In this document: one piece after another, positions 4,486 to 61,779 of the stretch
Layout of the letters: the number at the start of each line of letters is the position of its first letter
Numbering within the stretch: position 1 is the stretch's first letter
Assembly: GCA_964593355.1 (NCBI GenBank)
Contig: CAZQHM010000021.1
Span: 1,565-65,564, forward strand
Source: an uncultured Myxococcales bacterium
GTDB taxonomy: Bacteria > Myxococcota_A > UBA9042 > CAIXZC01
Length of the DNA stretch: 64,000 nucleotides
Direction of reading: 5' to 3'
The notes under the pieces: model-generated
Databases searched by the model: none
Told to the model about the DNA's origin: nothing
The model's input: the letters and a program-made list of their open reading frames with translations, nothing else
Position numbers and translations under genes: made by a program

Positions 4486-7017
4486 GTGTTCGAGGTCATG
4501 GGGGCTGTTATGAAATGTCAATGCTCGACTAAGCCACGGACTATGTGTCGCATTTGTGGTGTTTGGCGATTCGGTTTACGTTGGCGACAGTTGATGGGGC
4601 TTCTTCCTCTGCTGCTCGGCTCGGCAACGTTGGAGGGTTGTCCCTCCTCCTCTGAGACCACGTCATGGGATGTTCTCGAAGCCAGGGGGCAAGGGGACCA
4701 ATGGGACGTTGGGCTTGATGGGACCTTAAGGGAATCCACAAGGGAATCCACCGTCGCTGACACCCTGGAGATGCTGAGCGAGCTTGACTCTCCCCCTGAT
4801 CTTCTCCCCGACCACCTTGACGACGTACCGGTGCCAGATGTCCAACCTCCTGTGGGAGAGTGCTGCATGTCCGACGGAGATTGCGGCGCCAAGGGCCGGT
4901 GTGTCGGCCCTTATCCCGGTGGCGCAGCGGCTCATGGAGTATGCGCCGAAGTGCCTGGTTCACCACGGTGCTATGCTGACTCCGATTGTCCCACCGGTGC
5001 TGCCTGCGAAGGTGCCAACTGGTGTCAGTGCGGCCAGCATTGCGATCCTCCGGCCCTGCCTGGCTGGTGCGTTTCGCCGGATGCGGGATGCTGCGGCTCA
5101 GACGACGATTGCATCGGGACTGGCGACTGCATTCTGGGCCACTGCCTGGGGGTGAGCTTTGTGGGTGGTGGATTCTGCTGGCACGATGCGAATTGCGAGA
5201 GCAACGAGGAGTGTGTTGGTGAGTTCGTGTGCCCCTGTGGATACAGCTGTCCGGTGGATTCAGCTTTGGGGACTTGTCATGCGTTGGGGCCTGACTGCTG
5301 TGAAACTGATGAAGACTGTGACGGCCAGATATGTCTCCGCAAGACCCCTGCCAGCCCCGGTGTCTGCGGTCCCGAACTTGCGCCGGGCTCGTGCTATTCA
5401 AGCCACGATTGTGCGCCAGGGAACGTATGCAACGGTGCTATGATATGTCAATGCTCCGACAACTGTGCGCCGGCCATGGGCTCTTGTGGCGCCTGTTGCA
5501 CGGACAACAGTTCGTGTGAGGAGGGGTATGTGTGCGTGTTGGGGTCGTGCCGGTTGGCCTCACAGGTGCCTCGGTGTTGGCAAGTGAGTGACTGTACACA
5601 CGATCCCAGTTGCAGTGGCGACGGATGTGCAACGCAGTTCGATTGCCAAGGGGAGGTAATCTGCCAGTGCGGTACCACCTGTGCTCACCAGGAAGTCATG
5701 GGCTGGTGCCTACCGCTTGACGTTCAGGGACCAAATTGCTGTGTGGCTGACAGCGACTGCTGGGAAGGAACGGTCTGCGTACAGGGCAAGTGCCTCATTT
5801 CGCCAGCGGGCGGAGCATGCTGGGAGTCCTCCGGCTGCACTGCGGGCGAAGAATGCATCGGTGCCGAAGTGGAACCCTGTGGTCAACACCTGTGGCCCGA
5901 TTTCCTCCCTAAGATTGGCTGGTGCGGCGGAGCAGCCAAATGCTGCGGCACAGATGCCGAGTGTCCAGCGCCATTGGTTTGTGCCGGCCTTGACTCGGGC
6001 GCCGGCCTGTTGGGCCAATGCAGAGCACCGACCGAAGCGACCAATGACTGCTGGACCGACTCCGAATGTGCACAAGGATTCGAGTGCGTCGGAGTGCTTG
6101 CTTGCGGTTGCGACCCACTGTGCGACAAGGAGCAGGTGGGCTTCTGCGAGAAGACCACCTTTGTGCCGTGCTGTGGTAGCGACGCCGGGTGCCAGGACGA
6201 AGAGCGCTGTGTTGGTAACTTGCCGAACAAGCAAAACGGCCGATGCGTGCCGACGCAGGTGGCAGGCCAGTGCTACGAGGACTCGGATTGCGGAAGTGGT
6301 CAATGTGTTGGGGAAACCACTTGCAGCTGTGAATTGGAATGCTCACCTGTGGCAGGTACGTGCACGGCGCAGCCGCAGTGCTGCGAAACCGACGAGGAGT
6401 GCGAAGACGCTGGCGACGTCTGCGCAGCGGGAAGATGTAAAGCGGTCCCACCATACGGAGCCTGCTGGAGTGACCAGGATTGCCCCGCCCCGGGGATTCT
6501 TGAGTGCCTTGGGGCCTTCGTTTGCCCCTGCAACGAATCCTGCAACCAAAACGATCATGCGGGCGTTTGCATGAGTTCCACAGAGACCTGCTGCGGGACA
6601 GCGGCCCAATGCGGTGAAGGTGATTTGTGTCTCCACACCGGGGCCCCCAATTTGCAGGGCCGTTGCTACAGGCCTGCGGAGTACCCAGAATGCTGGAGTT
6701 CCAGTGATTGCGAGGAGGGAGCAACGTGTTGGGATGCAAATGTGTGCGCTTGTGAAGAAGTCGGCTGTGTTCCGAACATGGGAATGTGCCTGACATTTGA
6801 AGCCTGCTGCGAAGGAGATCAGGATTGTCTGAACACCGAAGTCTGTGTGCATCCAGAAGGGCAACCAACGGCCGACGGCACCTGCAAGTCTCTGGTACAG
6901 CCGGGAAGCTGCTGGAATAGCCAGAGTTGCCCAGCAGGTCAAACTTGCCAAGGGGCCAAAGTGTGTCCGTGCGGCGCCCTCTGTCTGGTTGCCGACCAAC
7001 TCGGAACGTGCCAGTAG
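4486..7017 (+). CDS. Secreted Cys-rich repeat protein (~18 repeats of ~45 aa, 'CCxxDxDC...GxCxxGxC' type)
   Basis: An 843-aa ORF. The hydrophobic N-terminus 'LMGLLPLLLGSATLEGC' suggests a signal peptide, so the true start is probably one of the downstream Met codons (about 4543-4594). Repeats include 'CCGSDDDCIGTGDCILGHCL', 'CCVADSDCWEGTVCVQGKCL', 'CCETDEECEDAGDVCAAGRC', 'CCEGDQDCLNTEVCV'. No catalytic domain is recognised. Confidence 0.7.
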   Translation: MFEVMGAVMKCQCSTKPRTMCRICGVWRFGLRWRQLMGLLPLLLGSATLEGCPSSSETTSWDVLEARGQGDQWDVGLDGTLRESTRESTVADTLEMLSELDSPPDLLPDHLDDVPVPDVQPPVGECCMSDGDCGAKGRCVGPYPGGAAAHGVCAEVPGSPRCYADSDCPTGAACEGANWCQCGQHCDPPALPGWCVSPDAGCCGSDDDCIGTGDCILGHCLGVSFVGGGFCWHDANCESNEECVGEFVCPCGYSCPVDSALGTCHALGPDCCETDEDCDGQICLRKTPASPGVCGPELAPGSCYSSHDCAPGNVCNGAMICQCSDNCAPAMGSCGACCTDNSSCEEGYVCVLGSCRLASQVPRCWQVSDCTHDPSCSGDGCATQFDCQGEVICQCGTTCAHQEVMGWCLPLDVQGPNCCVADSDCWEGTVCVQGKCLISPAGGACWESSGCTAGEECIGAEVEPCGQHLWPDFLPKIGWCGGAAKCCGTDAECPAPLVCAGLDSGAGLLGQCRAPTEATNDCWTDSECAQGFECVGVLACGCDPLCDKEQVGFCEKTTFVPCCGSDAGCQDEERCVGNLPNKQNGRCVPTQVAGQCYEDSDCGSGQCVGETTCSCELECSPVAGTCTAQPQCCETDEECEDAGDVCAAGRCKAVPPYGACWSDQDCPAPGILECLGAFVCPCNESCNQNDHAGVCMSSTETCCGTAAQCGEGDLCLHTGAPNLQGRCYRPAEYPECWSSSDCEEGATCWDANVCACEEVGCVPNMGMCLTFEACCEGDQDCLNTEVCVHPEGQPTADGTCKSLVQPGSCWNSQSCPAGQTCQGAKVCPCGALCLVADQLGTCQ

Positions 7018-7026
7018 CGATCGGAA

Positions 7027-7311
7027 TTATCCAACCAGATGCGCTATGAAGCCCGTCTGCCCGCCGCTGCGCACCACCTCCATTCTCCTTGAGTGGCGGG
7101 CCACTATCTCGTCCACGATGGAGAGACCGAGGCCCGTGCCGTGGTCCTTCCTGGTGAAGAATGGTTCGAACAGCTTCGACACGTCATCTTGGGCAATTCC
7201 CGGGCCGTTGTCCCACACAGCCAGAAATGCCTCCCCAGGTCTGCTCTCCACGACCACCCGCACAAGGCCCCCGTGGGAACCCGTGCACATCCTGAATGCG
7301 GGCAGGAACAC
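7027..7311 (-). pseudogene. Histidine-kinase HATPase_c C-terminal fragment (94 aa)
   Basis: 'FLAVWDNGPGIAQDDVSKLFEPFFTRKDHGTGLGLSIVDEIVARH' covers the G1/G2 boxes of a histidine-kinase ATPase domain. No HisKA or sensor region exists upstream in any frame, so this is a remnant. Confidence 0.5.
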
Positions 7312-7397
7312 CGTCTCGTTTGACTTCCTTTAATGCGTTGACAAAACCACCTCCGGTTTTCACAATCCGCGGGCTTGGTCTGCGGGAGGCGTGGTCT

Positions 7398-8804
7398 ATG
7401 GAGTTGACCCTTGACTGGCTGTTGGACAAGAGAGTTCACCTGCTTGGTATCGGCGGCATCGGTGTGAGCGGCGTTGCTCGTCTGCTTGCCGCCCGAGGTG
7501 TGGCCGTCTCTGGGTGCGACGTGCGTGAGTCGTCCATCATCGATGCGCTTCGCTCCGAAGGTATCGATGTGGCAATAGGGCATCGCCCCGAGCATGTGGA
7601 CCAGAGCGATGTGCTGGTCTACTCCACGGCGGTTCCCGGAGTGAATCCGGAGCTTGCATACGCCCGGGAGAAGGGCCATCCACTCTATCACCGGTCGCAT
7701 CTCCTGGGGGCCCTCTCTCTGGCCCACCTGCGCTCGGTGGGCATCACGGGCACCAACGGAAAAGGGACGGTCTGTGCCATGCTCACCCATATTCTCAGGG
7801 TGGCAGGCCTCAACCCGTCGTTCTTCGTTGGAGCGTTGTGCCCCAACCTGGGTACCAATGCACTGGCTGGCTCTGGAGACCTCTTCGTGGCCGAACTCGA
7901 TGAGTCCGATGGTTCCCTGGTGAACATCCGGCCCGACTTCGCCCTGGTCAATAACCTGGAGCTGGACCATCTCAACTATTACCGGGACCTGGACCACACC
8001 ATAGAGACGCTGGTCACCTTCATCGACCAGATGCCGCAACAGGGCGTTCTCTTCCTCAATGGGGATGACCAGGGCACGTTGGCCCTGGCGGCCCGGCTCA
8101 AGGGGCGCAGTTGCGTCCTCTTCGGCACCGGAGAGAACTGCAGCGTTCGTTGTGTGCCAGTAGCGGTCAGTGACGCAGGGACGGATTTCTCCGTCACGCT
8201 CGCCCGCCCCAATGGCCCGCAAGACCTGGGCATCTTCAGGCTCAACGTCCCCGGGCTCTACAACCTCGAGAACGCAGCGGGCGCACTGGCAGTGGCCCTC
8301 CACCTTGGAGTGGACCCCGCCGCTGCCAAGGAAGCGCTGGCCAGCTTCAAAGGGCTGCTGAACCGATATACCCTGGTCGAAGCCGCAGGGCGGAAGCTGG
8401 TCAAGGATTATATGTCGCACCCTACGGGGATACGGAAAGTGCTCCAGACGGCTCGTGTTGGCACCTCCGGGCGCCTCATCGCAGTGTTCAAGCCATACAG
8501 ATACACCATGATCAACTACCATGCGGAGAATTACGCCGCTGCCTTCGCCAACGCTGACGAAGTGGTCATCACCCGCATGTGGGAGGCTGGAGAGGACCCC
8601 ATCCCAGGTGTGGATACCCCATGGCTTGCCGACCAGATAGCCAAGGCCGGCGTCAAGGTTACATACATAGATCAGATGGATTCTATCACGGACCATCTGC
8701 TTGCAACTCAGCAACCAGGCGACTGCGCCGTCTTCTTTGGCGGCAATGACATGTTCGAACTTGTGGACGAACTGGCATCCAGGTATCAGTCGCTGACACA
8801 ATAG
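7398..8804 (+). CDS. murC: UDP-N-acetylmuramate--L-alanine ligase (MurC; Mpl-type ligase not excluded)
   Basis: N-terminal Rossmann 'HLLGIGGIGVSGVARLLAARG'; Mur ligase P-loop 'GITGTNGKGT'; 469 aa. Confidence 0.85.
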   Translation: MELTLDWLLDKRVHLLGIGGIGVSGVARLLAARGVAVSGCDVRESSIIDALRSEGIDVAIGHRPEHVDQSDVLVYSTAVPGVNPELAYAREKGHPLYHRSHLLGALSLAHLRSVGITGTNGKGTVCAMLTHILRVAGLNPSFFVGALCPNLGTNALAGSGDLFVAELDESDGSLVNIRPDFALVNNLELDHLNYYRDLDHTIETLVTFIDQMPQQGVLFLNGDDQGTLALAARLKGRSCVLFGTGENCSVRCVPVAVSDAGTDFSVTLARPNGPQDLGIFRLNVPGLYNLENAAGALAVALHLGVDPAAAKEALASFKGLLNRYTLVEAAGRKLVKDYMSHPTGIRKVLQTARVGTSGRLIAVFKPYRYTMINYHAENYAAAFANADEVVITRMWEAGEDPIPGVDTPWLADQIAKAGVKVTYIDQMDSITDHLLATQQPGDCAVFFGGNDMFELVDELASRYQSLTQ

Positions 8805-8812
8805 GCAATCAT

Positions 8813-10159
8813 ATGTACTCAGTGGAAGGCAAGTCGTTCAGCGTGCTGGGTCTGGCCCGGTCGGGCCTGGCTGCGGCCAACTATCTGGCCCGAAACGGGG
8901 CCGATGTCTTCGTCAGCGACCGGGCTCCTGCCCAGAAGCTGCCCTTGGACAAGCTTGACCCTCGGGTGACCGTTTGCGCCGGCGAGGAGAAGGTGCGCCA
9001 GGGAGACGTGGTCGTCATCAGCCCAGGAATCAAGCCTGGAACCCCCGCTCACTCCATGGCACACGAGCTTGGTAGCGAGGTCATCTCGGATATTGAACTG
9101 TTCTATCGGCTCTCTCCGGCTCCCGTACTTGCGGTGACCGGGACCGATGGCAAGTCGACCACAACGGCCCTGCTTGGCGAGCTGTGCGCCGCTGCGGGAT
9201 TCCCGGTCTTTGTGGGAGGCAACATCGGTGTGGCCTGCATGGATGGCCTGAAGCAGCTTTCCAAAGAAGGCCTGGCGGTTCTGGAAGTGAGCTGCTTCCA
9301 GTTGACCCACTGCTACCAGCTGAGACCCAGGGTGGCCTTGGTGACAAACATAGCCGAAGACCACGTGGAGTATCACGGCAGCTTCGAAGAGTATGTTGAG
9401 GCGAAGCGGAGGATTTTCCAGAGCATGGGGGCCGGCGATACCCTGGTGCTCAACGGAGACGATGAACTGCTGGCAACCTGGCAAACCCCCGCCGGCTGCC
9501 GACGAAGAACCTTCGGATGGAGTCAGGGCGGCGAGGCCTGGTGCGACGGCCAGAGCATATTCTTGAAGCGCGATGGCGAGTACCGCCGGCTTGTGGATCT
9601 TGATCGGCTGAAGCTGGTTGGGCGACATAACGCCGAGAACGTCATGGCGGCGCTGCTCTGCATCGATGGCCTGTTTGCCGATGCTTTTGACCTGGTGGAA
9701 GCCATCAAGGCCTTTCCGGGTCTTGAACACCGCATGGAATTCGTTGCCAAGGTGAACGGGGTGGACTTCTACAACGACAGCAAGGCAACAAACCCCCACG
9801 CCGCCATGGCCGTGGTCAACTCGTTCCCCGGGAACTTCGTCGTGCTGGCCGGCGGGTACGAAAAAGGCAGCGATTTCGGCGAGTTGGGGCGCCTCATTGC
9901 CGTGAAGACAAGGGCAGCGGTTCTCTATGGTGCCACCCGTGAGCGGCTGGCAGCGGTGATTCCTCAGGGCCACCCGGTCTTCCTCGTGGAGACGCTGCAG
10001 CAGGCTATTGCCAAGAGCCTCGAGCTGGCGCTGCCCGGTGATAGCGTGGTGCTGGCCCCGGCCTGTGCCTCTTTTGACCAGTTTTCGGATTTTGAAGAGC
10101 GTGGAAGGAAATTCAAGGATTGGGTTCGCCAATTGAACAATGGCGGGGAGAACAAATAG
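8813..10159 (+). CDS. murD: UDP-N-acetylmuramoylalanine--D-glutamate ligase (MurD)
   Basis: 'VLGLARSGLAAANYLARNGADVFVSD' N-terminal fold; 'VTGTDGKSTTTALLGEL' P-loop; 448 aa. Confidence 0.85.
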   Translation: MYSVEGKSFSVLGLARSGLAAANYLARNGADVFVSDRAPAQKLPLDKLDPRVTVCAGEEKVRQGDVVVISPGIKPGTPAHSMAHELGSEVISDIELFYRLSPAPVLAVTGTDGKSTTTALLGELCAAAGFPVFVGGNIGVACMDGLKQLSKEGLAVLEVSCFQLTHCYQLRPRVALVTNIAEDHVEYHGSFEEYVEAKRRIFQSMGAGDTLVLNGDDELLATWQTPAGCRRRTFGWSQGGEAWCDGQSIFLKRDGEYRRLVDLDRLKLVGRHNAENVMAALLCIDGLFADAFDLVEAIKAFPGLEHRMEFVAKVNGVDFYNDSKATNPHAAMAVVNSFPGNFVVLAGGYEKGSDFGELGRLIAVKTRAAVLYGATRERLAAVIPQGHPVFLVETLQQAIAKSLELALPGDSVVLAPACASFDQFSDFEERGRKFKDWVRQLNNGGENK

Positions 10160-55383: not shown

Positions 55384-55508
55384 CAGGCCATCCCAACCCG
55401 TTTCTTGTGCCCCAACAGGGCCGCCGAAACCAGCGCCCTCGATGCACCACAGCAGATTGACAAGGGCGATGCCCTGAATCATTGTTTGTGCGTTGTAAGG
55501 AGGCTGGA

Positions 55509-57158
55509 ATGAAAGGAACACGCTTCGGGCTGATCACTCTTTTGCTGGCAAGCCACCTGGTGGCCTGCGGCGCCCTCGACAAGGTTTTGGACTTGGACAT
55601 CGCTGCCGACGCCGATGGGACATCGGCAGACCTGTGGCAGGTAGCCGACGGCACGACGGAGGGCATGGGTTCTGATATTGCACAGGAGGACTGGGCCAGC
55701 CCTGGCGATGGAATCGAGCATGATGCCCTGCCCGAGGACCTCCTCTCGGAGATCGAAGAGATCATTCCTGTTGATGCACCGGGGCCGGACCAGGCCGACG
55801 TGGTCCAAGTCGCCGAGGTGTCAATCACCGTAGCCCAACAGTGGCAGCGAGGCCCCGTGAGCGTGATGCTCTCGTTGGATGGTGTGCCAGAAGGTGCCGA
55901 GGTTGCCCTGTTCTGGGGGCAGGCAGAGCCAACGGCCCCCGCAACATCGCTGCAGGGATATGGCTCAGAACCGGGAGTTCTCGGCGACGGCACATACAGG
56001 ATGGTCTGGGACTCCATGGCAGACTCTCAGGCCGATTCGGCAGTGACGCTGGCCGCCAGGGTCTCCCTGGGGGGCAACCTGATTGCTGCTTCCGAACCGG
56101 TCACGCTGGAACTGAGAAACGACCCCGAACGAGATAGAGCGGCCCTGGTCACTAACGGCATCAACGGAGCAAACAGGGTTCGCCCGTTGAAATACTCACT
56201 GACCCAGGGATTCTCCTACGATGGCACAGTATTTGAGGTTGGCAACCGGCCAATATCCGCAGTCTTCCACCCGGGTGGTATCTCGGCGGTGACTTCGGAC
56301 ATCGATTCCGACCAGCTCACGTTCTACAGAGTGAGTGCCGATGGTCGCATAGAGGTCGCCCAGACCGTTGCTACCGACGGCCTCTATTTCGAGGATTTGG
56401 CCTGGTCACAGGACGGAGCGACGCTCTTCCTGCTGAACTACAACCCCACCCCCGAGGGGGGCGTCTACGCCCTTGACCTGGACCCCTTCACAGGCCTGCC
56501 ACCCGAAGAGTCGCAGTTCGTGTTCCTCTCGCACCACTACGCCGGTTCCAGGATGGCCCTCCTGCCCGCCAATGCGGGTTATGTGGTGCTGGAAGGGGTG
56601 GAGGCTGACCCAGGCAGCGGTCTTACGGTGACGCTGGCAGATGTGAATGGGTCGATCCTGAACCAGTACCCGGTTCCCGGGGATGGAAGCATAGCGTCGG
56701 CTGTTGCGGTTTCGCCCGACGGCACCAGAATGCTTGCTTCTTATTATAATCTATTTGGAGCTGGCGACAAGGTTATGCTGTTTGATGTTGGCGCAGGTGG
56801 TACACTGGAGTATGCTGCCGATGTGGACGTCTACGATCCGGCCGACCTGCAGTGGAGTGAGAACGGTGCCTTCGCACTGGCTCTGGAGGCCGAGGGCAAC
56901 AAGGCTCGGCTGTTGAAGGTATCACCCCAGGATCTGAGCATAGCGGGAACGGGATCCACGGGCCTGCCATTGGAAATCGCCTCGATGAAATGGGGCTCCA
57001 TGGCCGACCTCTTCATCGTAACCACAGTCTCGGCCTCCACAGGTGTATCGGGCCTGCGAATGTACATCGAGGATGCCGGGCAGCTCAAGGAGCACTCCTT
57101 CTTCGGGATGGGCGACGGCCTGGATGTGCTGATCGACTCTGTGGCCATCCAGCCCTGA
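55509..57158 (+). CDS. Lipoprotein with acidic linker and probable lactonase-like beta-propeller
   Basis: ATG at 55509 has AGGAGG 6 nt upstream. Signal and lipobox 'LITLLLASHLVAC'. The acidic low-complexity N-terminus is 'DLDIAADADGTSADLW...EDLLSEIEEIIPVD'. Repeated strand motifs 'TFYRVSADGRIE', 'LYFEDLAWSQDGATLFLLNYN', 'GGVYALDLDPFTG' suggest a 7-bladed propeller. Confidence 0.5.
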   Translation: MKGTRFGLITLLLASHLVACGALDKVLDLDIAADADGTSADLWQVADGTTEGMGSDIAQEDWASPGDGIEHDALPEDLLSEIEEIIPVDAPGPDQADVVQVAEVSITVAQQWQRGPVSVMLSLDGVPEGAEVALFWGQAEPTAPATSLQGYGSEPGVLGDGTYRMVWDSMADSQADSAVTLAARVSLGGNLIAASEPVTLELRNDPERDRAALVTNGINGANRVRPLKYSLTQGFSYDGTVFEVGNRPISAVFHPGGISAVTSDIDSDQLTFYRVSADGRIEVAQTVATDGLYFEDLAWSQDGATLFLLNYNPTPEGGVYALDLDPFTGLPPEESQFVFLSHHYAGSRMALLPANAGYVVLEGVEADPGSGLTVTLADVNGSILNQYPVPGDGSIASAVAVSPDGTRMLASYYNLFGAGDKVMLFDVGAGGTLEYAADVDVYDPADLQWSENGAFALALEAEGNKARLLKVSPQDLSIAGTGSTGLPLEIASMKWGSMADLFIVTTVSASTGVSGLRMYIEDAGQLKEHSFFGMGDGLDVLIDSVAIQP

Positions 57159-57280: not shown

Positions 57281-60049
57281 CTATCTGCCGAACCAGGCGG
57301 GCATCTTGCTCCTGCCGTCGGTGGTCAGCACCTTGAGCTTCTTCTCGTTTACATTTACCGATGCCAGATTGGGACCCTTGGCCCCCTGAACCGTAACAAC
57401 AATGTGGGTTGCGTCCAGCGACCAGTCGAACTGGTCCGGAATCAGGCCCGAGAGGTTCCCTGGGGTGGCGTCCAGAGTTGCAATTTCACCTTCGGCATCG
57501 GCCCCCAGCAGCACAATCTTGTCACCTTGAAGGGACGCCAGGAAGTAGAGCGGCGAGACCGCAATCTTAGAAGTCTCGGTCTGGCCCTCCCAGATGAACT
57601 CCTTCTGGGTCTTGTCCAGCCTGTTGATGCTGTATACGCCCACCAACTGCGGTGCGGACTTGTACGAGGCCACCAACTCTTCCCCGGAAGGCAAGAAGCC
57701 CAGGGCACCGACGGCATCTTCGTCGGAATCAAACACCGGCGTCACCTCGCCGGTGTTCATTTGGGCTGAGTAGGTTCTGACCAGAGTCTCCTTCAAGAAG
57801 AAGATGGCGTTGGAACCAGCCGGGGCCCAGTGAATGGGACCAATCTCCGGCGTCCCTTCGGATTTGCCAACCACACCGGTGAGAGTCACCACATCACCCT
57901 TGGCTCCATCGTAATCGGCCGTGGCGACAACGGAGAGACCGTTGGCAGTGCCGCGAAAGATGAGCCTGCCTGTACCCGCCGGTGCCTCGATGGTGAACTC
58001 TCCACCTTGGCCGGTCTGAGCCGTCAGCATAGTGCCCTCAACGGCCACCGTGGCGTTGGCAACAGGGGCCGCTATGGCGCCCTGGCCGAAGCGGAAGCTG
58101 CCTTGAACCGTAAGCGTGTCAGCGGTGGTCTTGATGCGTTTGCTGTCTATGTCCGGCGTTACCTGGTAGCATTTGGAACCATCAGAGGAAACAACAAAGA
58201 TGTTGTAGCGGGCCTCATTGAAGGCCAGCCGATAATCGGAGGCGAAGGCAATGTAGTCTCTCTCTGGCGACCAGGTGGGATAGTAGACATTGACCGCTGG
58301 GTCCTCGAAGCGGGTCAGTGGTCTCTGGTCCGAGCCATCGGGGGCCATGGTGTAGAGGTCGCTTCCTCCGGTCTCCGACTCTCGCACGAACACTATTCGG
58401 TTATTGGAGTTAGCCTTTCTCTGGCCTGAACCGGTGAAGTTGGCCGGCTGCTCGCCTTCCAGAAGGAGGCATCGGAACTCTTCGGGCTGTATGGTGCTAT
58501 CTTCTTCAGTGCCGGAGGTGTCTTTCTCCGGGGCGGGGGCCACCTCTTCGCAGACCGTTTGGGTCGTCTCACTTCCGCAAGCGACGGTCCCCAGTGAGAC
58601 CAGGGCAAGGGCAAGAAATGCCGTGCGCCTGGCTCGACGCAGGGCAACCAGGATGAGCAACGCACCGGTCAGCATCAGCGCTGCGGCGGGTCGGCCATGG
58701 GTTGTGGAACTGCAGCCTTCGCTCTTCTTGACCTCTTTGCAGTTGGCACCACCGGTGTCTTCGTCACCGGGAATGATCCCGCCCCAGACGTCGGTTTCGC
58801 CGGGGGCCGAGTTCTCGCCAACGGGTTTGTCGTCGCCAAAGGTTCCAAACATGTGTCCCCAGGTCCAGACGTCGCTTACGATATCCTCGCCGCCGCCCTC
58901 GGGGTTTCCATCGGGGTTGGTGATGCTGCCTGCGCAGCCGCCACCGTTGGAGTACTTCACAATCAGACCCCAATCACCCACAACCCACCCGGCATTTTCG
59001 CAGGGGAAGACTATGTCGAAGTAGCCGCCCTGCTGCTCGGCTTCGGGCACGAACTCCCAGGTTACGCCGCCATCGAAGGACTCGATGACCACGGCCTTGT
59101 TACCGTATCCGCCGTCGGGGTTTCCCACAGAGCCTGCGGCGATGGCGTGGATTGGGGTGAGCATGAGGGCACGCGTCAGGAAGACCCACTCACCGGCAGG
59201 GTGGGTTGGCAGAGTGATGTCGCTCCAGCTTTTGCCTCCGTCCGTGGTTCGCTTGATGAAATACTTTTTGTTGTTGTTACCCGCAGCCGCAAGACCTACA
59301 TTGGCGTCGAACATATGAATGGAGCGGAAGATATCCGGGCTGTTTATAAGCCTCGGCTCAAAGGTGCGGCCACCGTCGGAGCTGTACATGACTATTCCTT
59401 CGGGTTTGATATCGTACCCGACGACCTTCTCCTGGCCAGGTGAGTATGGGTCCTCTTCGGTTATCTCTTCCTGGCGGCCGCCCACAGCCCAGCCCCGCAG
59501 GTTGTCGACGAAGAAGATGGCCTGCAACTCCTGCCCAATAGCCAAGTCCGTCGTGGACCAGTTCAATCCCCCATTCCCCGTGTATATAACCTTGCTGCCT
59601 GATATTGCATATATGTAGTTGGTGTTTACGGCATGGACATCCATCAGTTGGTCGAATCCACCGACGCCCGGCACAGCGAGGGCGTTCCATGACTTTCCGC
59701 CATCCTTGGACTGGTACATCCCGAGTCCCACGCCGTAGGCCGTGAGTGTGTCTGCGAAGCTAAGTTGAAACATGAAGGGTGGTATAATACCACCACCAGT
59801 GCCCGTAATGCTTCCGGCGGTCCACATGTCGCCGCCGTTTGCGGTCCACCAGGCCGCTCCCTTGTCTCCCTGGCCCGAGTTGGACTTCCCGACGGCAGCG
59901 GCGGTGGTATCGTCGAAGGCGCCAACGCCGTAGGCACCGTTGCCGTCGCCGGCCAGGGAGAACTGCTTGACCCACTCGGCCTGGGCCGTTGAGGTGAAGA
60001 GAAGAGCCAAAACCAGAGAGAGGCGGCCAATCGTTCCAGAAGAGAGCAT
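57281..60049 (-). CDS. Secreted BNR/Asp-box (Ycf48/sialidase-like) propeller fused in frame to a TolB-like PD40 propeller, with an internal MYXO-CTERM-like sorting-tag segment
   Basis: ATG at ~60049 has GGAGG 5 nt upstream; signal 'MLSSGTIGRLSLVLALLFTSTAQA'. BNR motifs 'SKDGGKSWNAL', 'NGGLNWST', 'SDGGRTFEP', 'TDGGKSWSD', 'FDGGVTWEF'. At aa ~456-486 'EGCSSTTHGRPAAALMLTGALLILVALRRARR' (Cys, hydrophobic helix, basic cluster) resembles a C-terminal MYXO-CTERM/PEP-CTERM-type anchor. It is followed immediately by 'TAFLALALVSLGTVACGSE', a second lipoprotein-signal-like segment, then PD40 repeats 'RIVFVRESETGGSDLYTMAPDGSDQRPLT', 'PTWSPERDYIAFASDY'. Confidence 0.6.
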   Translation of the reverse strand: MLSSGTIGRLSLVLALLFTSTAQAEWVKQFSLAGDGNGAYGVGAFDDTTAAAVGKSNSGQGDKGAAWWTANGGDMWTAGSITGTGGGIIPPFMFQLSFADTLTAYGVGLGMYQSKDGGKSWNALAVPGVGGFDQLMDVHAVNTNYIYAISGSKVIYTGNGGLNWSTTDLAIGQELQAIFFVDNLRGWAVGGRQEEITEEDPYSPGQEKVVGYDIKPEGIVMYSSDGGRTFEPRLINSPDIFRSIHMFDANVGLAAAGNNNKKYFIKRTTDGGKSWSDITLPTHPAGEWVFLTRALMLTPIHAIAAGSVGNPDGGYGNKAVVIESFDGGVTWEFVPEAEQQGGYFDIVFPCENAGWVVGDWGLIVKYSNGGGCAGSITNPDGNPEGGGEDIVSDVWTWGHMFGTFGDDKPVGENSAPGETDVWGGIIPGDEDTGGANCKEVKKSEGCSSTTHGRPAAALMLTGALLILVALRRARRTAFLALALVSLGTVACGSETTQTVCEEVAPAPEKDTSGTEEDSTIQPEEFRCLLLEGEQPANFTGSGQRKANSNNRIVFVRESETGGSDLYTMAPDGSDQRPLTRFEDPAVNVYYPTWSPERDYIAFASDYRLAFNEARYNIFVVSSDGSKCYQVTPDIDSKRIKTTADTLTVQGSFRFGQGAIAAPVANATVAVEGTMLTAQTGQGGEFTIEAPAGTGRLIFRGTANGLSVVATADYDGAKGDVVTLTGVVGKSEGTPEIGPIHWAPAGSNAIFFLKETLVRTYSAQMNTGEVTPVFDSDEDAVGALGFLPSGEELVASYKSAPQLVGVYSINRLDKTQKEFIWEGQTETSKIAVSPLYFLASLQGDKIVLLGADAEGEIATLDATPGNLSGLIPDQFDWSLDATHIVVTVQGAKGPNLASVNVNEKKLKVLTTDGRSKMPAWFGR

Positions 60050-60208
60050 GATTACCTCCAAACCAGAGCCCCGTGGGGCCACAATGTGGCGGATTCTGCC
60101 TCATTGGGTTGGCCAAATCAAGGCTGGGGGAGGGGGTTCGCCGTAATCACTTGAATTCCGCGGGGGACTCTGAAAATATCATGTAATCTTGTGGCCTTGG
60201 AGGTCTTC

Positions 60209-61288
60209 ATGGGGCGACTCCTCTCTCTGGTCCTCCCCGTAGTAATGGTTGCGCTGGCAGCGTGCGGTGAGACGGTTATCATCAAGTCGGGCAAAAGCAA
60301 GTGCGAGGCTGACTGTGCCGGGAAGCAATGCGGCAACGACGGTTGCGGTGGCACCTGCGGCAGTTGCGGCATTGGCCTCTACTGCTTGAACTGGCAGTGC
60401 ATCGTGGGCACGGGGCCGGAAGACCTCCATGGGCTCTTGCCTCTTGGCGATACTACGGCCCCCGACGACGACATCTCTCCCATAGCCGACCTCGGGACCG
60501 ACGAATCGCTGCCCGATACCTCGGTGGCGCCGGACACGAGCAAGCCCGAGGATGTGGAGCAGGACAAGGGGCCGTCAGTGCCGGGCAAGTGCTTCTTTGT
60601 GTACGATGATGCCGACGACGACGGCTTCGGGGCTCTGGCGACGAAGGAGGAGTTTTGCGGTTATGATTACGTGCCTGCGGGAAAGTCGCTGAAATACGGC
60701 GACTGCAACGACTCGGACAGTCTGGTGAATCCCGGAATTCCAGAGTCGTGCGACGACCGTGACAACGACTGCGATGGGGTGGTTGACAACGGATGCGATG
60801 TGGATGGTGATGGCTACTGCACCGACAAACTCCCCATATTCGGGGTGCCGGCGGTCTGTACGAAGGGGCTCAACGACTGCAACGATTTCTCGGCTTCCGT
60901 CTTCCCCGGCAACTTCGAACTGCCCGGTGATGGTCTGGACAACGACTGCGACGGCGAGGTGGACGAAACGGTGCAGTGCCCAGGAACGTGCACGGGCCAG
61001 ACCGTGGATGCCTTCCTGTGCGCCATAGAGATTTGCTCGGGCCAATACCAGAATGCCAGTTTCTCGTCTCCCACCGGTGACAACATCTCCTCGGCATGGG
61101 CAGCGGTGAACCACTTCGGCAGCGTCAATAACGACCTGGCACCGCTGGCTCCGCCCTCATACTCACTCTTTGCCACGGGGCCAGCGCAGGGCACCAGCCA
61201 CTCAACAGATCTTTCAGGGGAGGAACGGCCACGGACAGCTTCTCCGGAGACACGATGTACGATGCCGTGGAGTTCGTCGTCACTCTGA
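60209..61288 (+). CDS. Lipoprotein with MopE-like putative metal-binding Cys/Asp repeats (N-terminal part of a frameshifted gene)
   Basis: ATG at 60209 has GGAGG 6 nt upstream. Lipobox 'VVMVALAAC'. 'CAGKQCGNDGCGGTCGSC'. MopE-type motifs 'CDDRDNDCDGVVDNGCDVDGDGYC' and 'CNDFSASVFPGNFELPGDGLDNDCDGEVDE'. The reading frame degenerates after ~61215. Confidence 0.6.
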   Translation: MGRLLSLVLPVVMVALAACGETVIIKSGKSKCEADCAGKQCGNDGCGGTCGSCGIGLYCLNWQCIVGTGPEDLHGLLPLGDTTAPDDDISPIADLGTDESLPDTSVAPDTSKPEDVEQDKGPSVPGKCFFVYDDADDDGFGALATKEEFCGYDYVPAGKSLKYGDCNDSDSLVNPGIPESCDDRDNDCDGVVDNGCDVDGDGYCTDKLPIFGVPAVCTKGLNDCNDFSASVFPGNFELPGDGLDNDCDGEVDETVQCPGTCTGQTVDAFLCAIEICSGQYQNASFSSPTGDNISSAWAAVNHFGSVNNDLAPLAPPSYSLFATGPAQGTSHSTDLSGEERPRTASPETRCTMPWSSSSL

Positions 61289-61779
61289 CGGCCCCCGCTG
61301 CGGCAACGGGCTTCTCGTTGGACTATGTGTTTATGTCGGAAGAGTACGAAGAATTTATTGGGACGCAGTTTAATGACAAGTTTTATATACTGCTGAAGGC
61401 TCCGCAGACCACTCAAAACAAGTGGACTATTATTAATTACACGGATTGCAGAGACCCGTCAGATTACCATGATTTTATTGACCCTGTTACTCAAAAGAAG
61501 CAGTGCTATCTGGCCATCAACACGGCCCTTAGCGAGCCGTGTAGTAACGTCAAGACAAACATATCTGGTACGGGATTTGAGTGCGGCTTCGGCGGAGCTG
61601 CCAATGGCTCATCGACTGGGTGGCTATACACGAACTGGTCGATAAACGGTGGCGAGACATTCCAGATCAAGTTCCATATACACGATACATCCGACGGTAT
61701 CTACGACTCTCTGGTAATACTGGACAACTTTCACTGGCTTACGGGCGAGTTTACGCAGGGAACGGCCTCACACAACTGA
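61216..61779 (+). CDS. C-terminal continuation of 60209 gene in the +1-shifted frame (low-GC domain, unknown function)
   Basis: The frame is open from ~61141 ('...GGTATDSFSGDTMYDAVEFVVTLTAPAAATGFSLDYVFMSEEYEEFIGTQFNDKFYILL...'). The switch point coincides with a GGGG run at 61217-61220. This part has ~47% GC against ~65% for the 5' part. Confidence 0.5.
   Translation, partial: RGGTATDSFSGDTMYDAVEFVVTLTAPAAATGFSLDYVFMSEEYEEFIGTQFNDKFYILLKAPQTTQNKWTIINYTDCRDPSDYHDFIDPVTQKKQCYLAINTALSEPCSNVKTNISGTGFECGFGGAANGSSTGWLYTNWSINGGETFQIKFHIHDTSDGIYDSLVILDNFHWLTGEFTQGTASHN

Follow-up and report, generated by a model that had tools for sequence, protein, structure and literature searches.

A mid-protein MYXO-CTERM-like tag followed by a lipoprotein-type signal joins two beta-propellers in a conserved family from uncultured Myxococcota

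Here we report a gene from an uncultured Myxococcales bacterium that encodes two secreted beta-propellers in one continuous frame, joined by a short segment in which a MYXO-CTERM-like sorting tag runs directly into a lipoprotein-type signal, together with the protein family to which it belongs. The gene lies in a stretch of 64,000 nucleotides (GenBank assembly GCA_964593355.1, contig CAZQHM010000021.1, positions 1,565 to 65,564 of the forward strand), the whole of which is called the window below and is numbered from its first letter. Judging from its relatives, it is almost certain that the propeller-propeller fusion is real and not an assembly error.

All features of the fused protein lie on the reverse strand (-). 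The list of open reading frames (ORFs) gives one frame at 57281..60082 (-), 933 residues from a GTG at 60082; because a GGAGG stands 5 nucleotides 5' of an ATG at 60049, this ATG is the likely true start, and we place the coding sequence at 57281..60049 with 922 residues, residue numbers following the 933-residue ORF throughout. Hydropathy peaks at three places: the N-terminal signal and two adjacent segments, at residues ~465-481 and ~487-501. A first-pass annotation of the window had described two secreted propellers fused in frame over a tag and a lipoprotein-signal-like segment, and the junction is indeed as quoted there: CKEVKKSEGCSSTTHGRPAAALMLTGALLILVALRRARRTAFLALALVSLGTVACGSETTQTVCEE (residues 448-513, DNA ~58544-58741) is translated without a stop codon.

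A protein search recovered five full-length relatives from differing sources (39-63% identity, 917-946 residues), all of them fused. Scanning one genome per species gave four loci, L001 to L004 (L001 being the same as P0003), in metagenome-assembled genomes labelled Myxococcales or Deltaproteobacteria, each with a single continuous frame across the junction, and a profile search of 1.84 billion representative proteins yielded eight further members with the same layout at 26-33% identity to the window protein. Two relatives, P0004 and P0005, were each recovered as an identical protein from more than one sample. The order Cys, transmembrane segment (TM), basic cluster, TM, Cys is present in all 19 members with a readable junction, at identities to the window protein down to 26%; none is split at the hairpin formed by these segments, and its length varies from 60 to >123 residues with the frame always kept. 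The corresponding regular expression had no match in 331 propeller proteins from outside the family (317,210 residues), and since all 19 members share the layout it is not due to chance. Neither a search with the C-terminal half nor the full-length profile run against the 1.84 billion representatives revealed an unfused close relative of either half; outside the family, both returned generic BNR or PD40 repeat proteins only.

Candidates for split relatives were examined and rejected. The apparent stand-alone C-terminal halves P0085 (520 residues; locus L005) and P0207 (395 residues; L010) have runs of N just upstream on their contigs, beyond which the N-terminal half resumes in another frame; the hairpin is internal in both, and they are scaffold-gap artefacts. 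P0086 is a 334-residue fragment off a 1.2-kb contig, and P0210, P0214 and P0218 are likewise short fragments. P0214 (301 residues) runs from N-propeller residues straight into the last ~130 residues of the C-terminal half, skipping the hairpin and most of that half, and looks like an assembly collapse or a chimera, not a natural short form.

Whether orthologues comprise one gene or two had been raised as the deciding comparison, and throughout the family they are one fused gene with a conserved internal segment. This supports the first of three explanations that had been offered for the junction, a genuine fusion with an internal membrane hairpin. The second, a lost stop codon or sequencing error, is excluded for the family because the frame stays open across the junction in every orthologue from an independent assembly, in distant relatives and in identical proteins from different samples. 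To have suspected such an error was reasonable, given the apparent frameshift in the neighbouring window gene. These comparisons indicate that the fusion is genuine and ancient in uncultured Myxococcota.

The first part of the junction is built like a MYXO-CTERM tag. This putative internal tag (58625..58717, residues 456-486) comprises a GC motif (GC457), a spacer, the hydrophobic segment TM1 (58640..58690, residues 465-481; Kyte-Doolittle peak 2.63) and the basic cluster RRARR (58625..58639, residues 482-486). The tripartite layout recurs in all 19 members, and the GC motif is kept in most of them, down to 26% identity. Tags were scored as excised segments against the NCBIfam profiles TIGR03901 (cut-off 20 bits) and TIGR03382 (cut-off 15.85 bits). 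The window segment, taken from ahead of C448 to RRARR, scored 20.4 and 18.6 bits respectively and matched both profiles end to end; its excised score is borderline, and no MYXO-CTERM match is reported for the full-length protein. Across the family, 11 of 19 tags pass one of the cut-offs, two fall just short at ~18 bits and six have a weak match (10 bits) or none. Three TM2 segments, the N-terminal signal peptide and a reversed tag served as controls, none of which matched MYXO-CTERM. Where the first-pass annotation had left the anchor as MYXO-CTERM/PEP-CTERM-type, only the MYXO-CTERM part stands: PEP_CTERM scores lie below the cut-off, and the tag has the GC motif in place of a PEP motif.

Several observations bear on tags of this kind elsewhere in the family and the window. 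The tag of the distant member P0209 matches JDVT-CTERM at 38.3 bits (cut-off 27), above its MYXO-CTERM score of 32.7 bits; JDVT-CTERM belongs to the related MrtJ sorting system and is described as never occurring in Myxococcota (PMC11980579). At L010, a gene convergent with the fused orthologue (7220-9478, -) has a textbook terminal MYXO-CTERM end, SSGCSHAGPSPAAAWLLLALLALLGRVARSRRSQG, and because of this gene we conclude that the L010 organism, at least, uses MYXO-CTERM in its normal position. Apart from this junction, the 64-kb window has no internal hairpin, and none of its proteins ends in a convincing MYXO-CTERM. Genes for myxosortase, Lgt, LspA or type II secretion are absent from the annotated large ORFs of the window, the only region covered here, and none of these ORFs encodes a CPBP protease.

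The basic cluster of the tag doubles as the n-region of a predicted lipoprotein-type signal (58577..58624, residues 487-502), in which the h-region TAFLALALVSLGTVA precedes Cys502 in a lipobox-like G-T-V-A-C. For comparison we used the pattern {DERK}(6)-[LIVMFWSTAG](2)-[LIVMFYSTAGCQ]-[AGS]-C with basic residues ahead, which we take to be the core of the PROSITE lipoprotein rule PS51257. The window sequence LALVSLGTVAC fits this core, as do 10 of 10 close orthologues. The lipoprotein-signal-like start noted earlier holds for the core pattern, and its position -3 is T and not L. All 19 members have A, G or S at position -1 of the lipobox, and the last basic residue lies 11-18 residues ahead of the lipobox Cys in all of them, at the low end (~11-12) in P0005, L005 and L003. 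At position +2 the 19 junctions have G, S, A or E, and none has Lys; Lys at +2 is an inner-membrane retention signal of Myxococcus xanthus lipoproteins (PMC3222651). Excised TM2 segments gave weak matches only, all of them to N-terminal signal regions of lipoprotein families (such as LptM, VirB7, Lpp/OprI, TrbK and TraV) and none to MYXO-CTERM. Weak matches to the NF058595 'lipo-invert' tail domain (E = 0.61 and 0.084; cut-off 37 bits) were not taken as membership. After Cys502, as in many lipoproteins, follows an acidic, Pro-rich and poorly conserved tether (58472..58549, residues 512-537) with a predicted local distance difference test score (pLDDT) <50, which stops just ahead of the invariant C538.

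The segment thus has the defining residues and scores of both a MYXO-CTERM tag and a lipoprotein signal, and fails the position criterion of each. From its sequence it would work like both signals while being a canonical member of neither.

Each side of the hairpin carries a second invariant Cys. Stalk segment 1 (58712..58741), C448-x8-C457 or CKEVKKSEGC, precedes TM1, and both of its Cys are invariant, C457 being the Cys of the GC motif. Stalk segment 2 (58550..58579), C502-x8-C511 or CGSETTQTVC, follows TM2, with C502, E505, T507, V510 and C511 invariant in alignment A1. The spacings of the two segments are (8,8) in 13 members, (9,9) in two members of different subfamilies, and (6,7), (5,6), (11,10) and (10,11) in one member each. 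Over the 18 members parsed by script the two lengths co-vary (Spearman's rho 0.997, permutation p ~1e-5, with no correction for phylogeny); the stalk of P0004, also (8,8), was read by eye and is outside this set. Since the lengths are equal and the chain runs in opposite directions relative to the membrane, C448 would face C511 and C457 would face C502, and the two segments probably pair as a short antiparallel ribbon. Such a ribbon could belong to a permanent hairpin stapled by disulfides or to two separate cleavage products that C448-C511 holds together. An AlphaFold2 (AF2) model of the full-length protein (mean pLDDT 49.5; N-terminal half unusable, C-terminal half acceptable) and one of a stalk-plus-hairpin sub-construct (mean pLDDT 51.6) both place their only local strands at residues 448-455 and 504-511, at low confidence, and neither model reveals contacts or topology.

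The conservation of the parts of the junction is uneven. Over nine full-length members, mean pairwise identity is 50% for the two propellers and 53-58% for the two Cys-bounded segments, as against 28% for TM1, 24% for TM2 and 25% for the N-terminal signal peptide; the linker stands at 46% and the acidic tether at 32%. The hydrophobic segments keep their composition and not their sequence, as targeting signals do, and TM1 and TM2 share no conserved packing motif. The cytoplasmic loop between them has gained in-frame tandem repeats in two lineages with unrelated units: L003 (~1830-2010) and L004 (~9370-9560) have 2-3 copies of a 13-residue repeat (TGTTVAPAxxPxx), and L010 (~5560-5860) has at least 6 copies of an 11-residue repeat (RWLPAGILPRY), within which its assembly has a 100-N gap. 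These expansions span 45 to >60 residues. In each of the expanded loops the basic cluster after TM1 is retained and TM2 is preceded by a cluster of its own (KRR or, in L010, an Arg of the last repeat unit). This is the picture expected of two independent signals set back to back, since the expanded loops leave each hydrophobic segment its own basic cluster, and it speaks against a hairpin packed tightly as a structural element. L003 and L004 also carry an odd Ser/Tyr-rich stretch, SYLSYASYMSYSSY, just ahead of the lipobox h-region.

On hydropathy and the positive-inside rule it is highly probable that the protein adopts a hairpin topology, with both propellers outside the cytoplasmic membrane and the basic loop in the cytoplasm. 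The third explanation offered by the first-pass annotation, an internal signal used for processing, emerges as the best-supported mechanism, on the evidence of sequence alone. We suggest, with about as much weight for as against, that both sites are processed: myxosortase and Lgt/LspA would divide the precursor into two lipid-anchored propellers, which would remain associated. Cys457 of the tag would be lipidated and the CPBP protease myxosortase (MrtX) would cut after it; Cys502 would be diacylglycerylated by Lgt, with LspA cutting in front of it; and the hairpin would be a disposable peptide that is discarded. A single translation product would then give two lipid-anchored propellers in a 1:1 ratio. 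Because the stalk segments co-vary in length and likely pair, the halves probably stay together through the paired stalk, possibly with a disulfide link.

A number of points weigh against processing at both sites. The MYXO-CTERM score of the window tag is barely over the cut-off, and eight of the 19 family tags are under it or without a match. Both signals stand in non-canonical places: the tag is not terminal, with 447 residues in frame after its Arg cluster, and is internal in all family members, while the lipobox Cys is residue 502 of 933, as against ~15-35 expected under the PROSITE rule. The classical L (or V/I) at -3 is replaced by T in the window, and Leu is found there in ~9 of 19 members. 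An uncut, disulfide-stapled hairpin would account equally well for the co-varying stalk lengths and the four invariant Cys, and neither C457 nor C502 could be lipidated if the two formed a disulfide. The AF2 models are of low confidence around the hairpin, and the cleavage and processing steps have all been read from sequence.

The strongest competitor, which we nonetheless regard as unlikely, is an inner-membrane hairpin that is never cut. TM1 and TM2 would be permanent helices, both propellers would be periplasmic and a two-stranded stalk would be stapled by C448-C511 and C457-C502; the resemblances to MYXO-CTERM and to a lipobox would be relics of two ancestral genes. Such a structure would account for the matched lengths of the Cys-bounded segments and for the invariance of all four Cys, it agrees with the two equal strands that AF2 predicts beside two helices, and the displaced position of both signals and the eight tags that fall short of the MYXO-CTERM cut-offs also speak for it. 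However, the hydrophobic segments are short for stable helices, TM2 having 11-18 residues and as few as ~11-12 in P0005, L005 and L003, and they lack a conserved packing motif at 24-28% identity. A mere anchor needs neither the small residue at -1, present in 19 of 19 members, nor the GC motif that is mostly kept, and the loop accepts repeat expansions of 45 to >60 residues in which each segment has its own basic cluster.

A more specific version of processing at both sites, which we hold to be rather improbable, would make the hairpin a double-lipidation cassette. C457 and C502, placed at the periplasmic ends of the hairpin in opposite chain orientation (one as in MYXO-CTERM, the other as in a lipobox), would both be lipidated, possibly both by Lgt; MrtX and LspA would excise the hairpin, and the propellers would be joined by the stalk and a C448-C511 disulfide.

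It is somewhat more doubtful still that only one of the sites is processed. Either LspA would free the C-terminal half as a lipoprotein, with the N-terminal half held by TM1 and an orphaned signal peptide, or myxosortase alone would act and leave the C-terminal half anchored by TM2 as an uncleaved signal-anchor. Processing at one site could appeal to the lipobox features found in 19 of 19 members against MYXO-CTERM scores in 11 of 19, and to the universality of Lgt and LspA as compared with a myxosortase that is only presumed in this organism. Against processing at a single site stand the GC-TM-Arg layout retained in all members, the terminal MYXO-CTERM protein that adjoins the orthologue in L010 and the occurrence of MYXO-CTERM, reported as universal in Myxococcota (PMC11980579).

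It is very improbable that an internal start within TM1 makes the C-terminal half separately as an ordinary lipoprotein, beside or instead of the fusion. The window does have an in-frame ATG (M470) and TTG (L474) inside TM1, but no Shine-Dalgarno-like sequence precedes either, M470 is not conserved in orthologues, the n-region would be a hydrophobic stretch, and chance alone would place in-frame Leu/Val codons in any membrane segment.

That a lost stop, an indel or a misassembly joined two neighbouring genes, an idea to which the apparent 1-nucleotide frame break at a GGGG run in the adjacent window gene lends some colour (indels do occur here) and of which a tag-plus-signal junction would be the expected product by read-through, has next to no probability left and appears refuted for the whole family by in-frame junctions in 19 of 19 readable cases from separate projects and samples, by hairpins of very different length that always keep the frame and by the lack of an unfused close relative of either half among the 1.84 billion representatives.

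A close known counterpart is the MYXO-CTERM pathway of Myxococcota, in which, according to Guo, Haft & Wall (mBio 2025, PMC11980579), MrtX cleaves the tag in a Cys-dependent manner and Lgt is the leading candidate for the lipidating enzyme, so far unidentified. Myxosortase was recognised as the protease of MYXO-CTERM sorting as late as 2025. The window protein shares with that pathway the Gly-Cys signature, the hydrophobic helix and the Arg cluster, as well as an N-terminal signal peptide and a Myxococcota host, and its excised segment is over both NCBIfam cut-offs. It differs in that the tag is internal, with 447 residues after it, in that processing here is a proposal from sequence, and in the extra Cys 9 residues upstream, which has a partner Cys across the hairpin.

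A mid-protein MYXO-CTERM also occurs in MXAN_5598 of M. xanthus, which the Discussion of PMC11980579 ascribes to a fusion of two adjacent genes and whose N-terminal part the authors propose to be still processed and surface-anchored; references 45 and 46, as cited there, are given as evidence that internal sorting tags of the LPXTG and PGF-CTERM types can function. By the description in that paper, on which our comparison is based, MXAN_5598 combines an adhesin with an outer-membrane beta-barrel/OmpA part, unlike the propellers found here. In our family, moreover, the downstream part opens with a lipoprotein-type signal and a lipobox Cys, and a whole conserved family has co-varying Cys stalks. 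In M. xanthus, overlapping ORFs encode the MYXO-CTERM surface receptor TraA and its outer-membrane partner TraB (PMC11980579). This pair has in common with the fused gene that a MYXO-CTERM protein is encoded directly ahead of a second envelope protein, in this case one that works with it, and is the type of gene pair that could yield such a fusion. In contrast, TraA and TraB are two separate genes, their domains are unrelated to those found here, and a functional link between the propellers described here would be a matter of inference.

Compared with a lipoprotein signal handled by Lgt, LspA and Lnt (PS51257), the second half of the junction has the basic n-region, an h-region of 11-18 residues, A, G or S at -1 and Cys at +1, followed by a disordered acidic tether and with no Lys at +2. 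It differs in that the Cys is at 502 and not at 15-35, in that -3 is often not Leu, and in that a membrane helix and an exported domain of 450 residues precede the n-region and tether it. In archaea, the Haloferax volcanii protein HVO_0405 (Abdul Halim et al. 2017, cited as reference 46 in PMC11980579) reportedly has an internal PGF-CTERM-like tripartite structure that is processed by the archaeosortase ArtA, and would share with our family a tripartite sorting signal of C-terminal type at a mid-protein position. It belongs to another domain of life and involves another tag and another enzyme. HVO_0405 is not known to have a second export signal after its tag.

Our literature search returned no account of a MYXO-CTERM tag directly followed by a lipoprotein-type signal, no conserved family built on such a junction and no length-matched Cys stalks, and nothing relevant on an internal lipobox, an internal lipoprotein signal or lipoprotein polyproteins. 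Internal sorting tags have precedent, and the tag-plus-lipoprotein-signal junction, its family and its Cys stalks were not found described.

The N-terminal type I signal peptide of the fused protein, MLSSGTIGRLSLVLALLFTSTAQA (59978..60049, residues 12-35), with a predicted cut before EW, was judged by eye from a hydropathy peak and an A-x-A motif, and A35-E36-W37 are invariant in alignment A1. The N-terminal propeller (58928..59977, residues 36-385) is Ycf48/BNR/Sortilin-Vps10-like by Pfam, with 36.3 bits to PF14870 (PSII_BNR/Ycf48; cut-off 27) and 34.5 bits to PF15902 (Sortilin-Vps10; cut-off 33). It is not an equivalog of the photosystem II factor Ycf48, its NF010237 score being 39 bits against a cut-off of 326. 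A linker conserved in alignment A1, with the motif W-x-WG-x-x-FG...NSAPG (58742..58927, residues 386-447), leads to the stalk.

The C-terminal half (57284..58471, residues 538-933) is a TolB/PD40-like beta-propeller with a CarboxypepD_reg-like insert and a conserved end, MPAWFGR. By sequence its TolB/PD40 matches are weak and partial, with few PD40-type blades, and it was rejected as TolB itself (TIGR02800, 36-39 bits against an equivalog cut-off of 343). In the AF2 model this half has a pLDDT of 70-90, and the top solved structures found with Foldseek are TolB propellers (1c5k, E 2e-9), at a TM-score to 1c5k of ~0.49, normalised to the target, which amounts to generic propeller similarity. 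The model thus suggests a TolB-like fold in a protein that is not TolB.

Divergent from the fused gene lies a predicted lipoprotein gene (60191..61779, +) with MopE-type metal-binding repeats (PF11617, E = 1.6e-21) and a choice-of-anchor-L-like C-terminal part. In the window it is read as two overlapping ORFs of 365 and 174 residues, with the frame break at ~61217-61220 in a GGGG run, and the break may be either an indel error or a sign of a pseudogene. Beside the fused gene in L001, L002, L004, L006 and L010 it is a single ORF of 500-579 residues, and this conserved divergent lipoprotein is one contextual clue to the role of the two propellers. The convergent downstream neighbour (55482-57158, +) encodes a 558-residue predicted lipoprotein (...LLLASHLVAC) with a weak match to a Lactonase-type 7-bladed propeller; it is kept beside the fused gene in L001 (50% identity) and not in the other loci compared. 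Further away, 25166-51271 (-) is a single ORF of 8701 residues with a lipoprotein-type signal near its N-terminus (...LSLALMAASC), a Dicty_CTDC repeat match in its first 1000 residues and no Pfam match over most of the two 1000-residue samples scanned; from these features it appears to encode a giant lipoprotein of the envelope or cell surface. Elsewhere the window consists of ordinary chromosomal DNA with a G+C content of ~60% (measured at 54-64 kb), and its other ORFs include Mur ligases, PheRS alpha and beta, EF-P, sensor kinases, a GGDEF response regulator and an AspRS, the last of these called by reading of its translation.

For annotation, sorting tags of C-terminal type and lipoprotein signals can both be functional candidates when they lie inside a protein. 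Such signals will be overlooked or misread by pipelines restricted to the termini, and equally by readers who suspect that a stop codon was lost. If the hairpin is uncut, what is left is a bitopic-hairpin envelope protein that is ordinary except for its interesting evolutionary origin. In either case, one short hairpin carries the MYXO-CTERM Cys at one end and the classical lipobox Cys at the other, and the family has retained this layout, with its length-matched Cys stalks, in members down to 26% identity to the window protein. Were the hairpin excised, these proteins would represent a bacterial envelope precursor that a pair of distinct intramembrane proteases splits into two lipid-anchored partners at a fixed 1:1 ratio, and would offer a ready-made substrate to test whether Lgt accepts an inverted topology. 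Should double lipidation prove true, the family would provide a natural substrate in which the unknown lipidation step of MYXO-CTERM stands beside the classical one.

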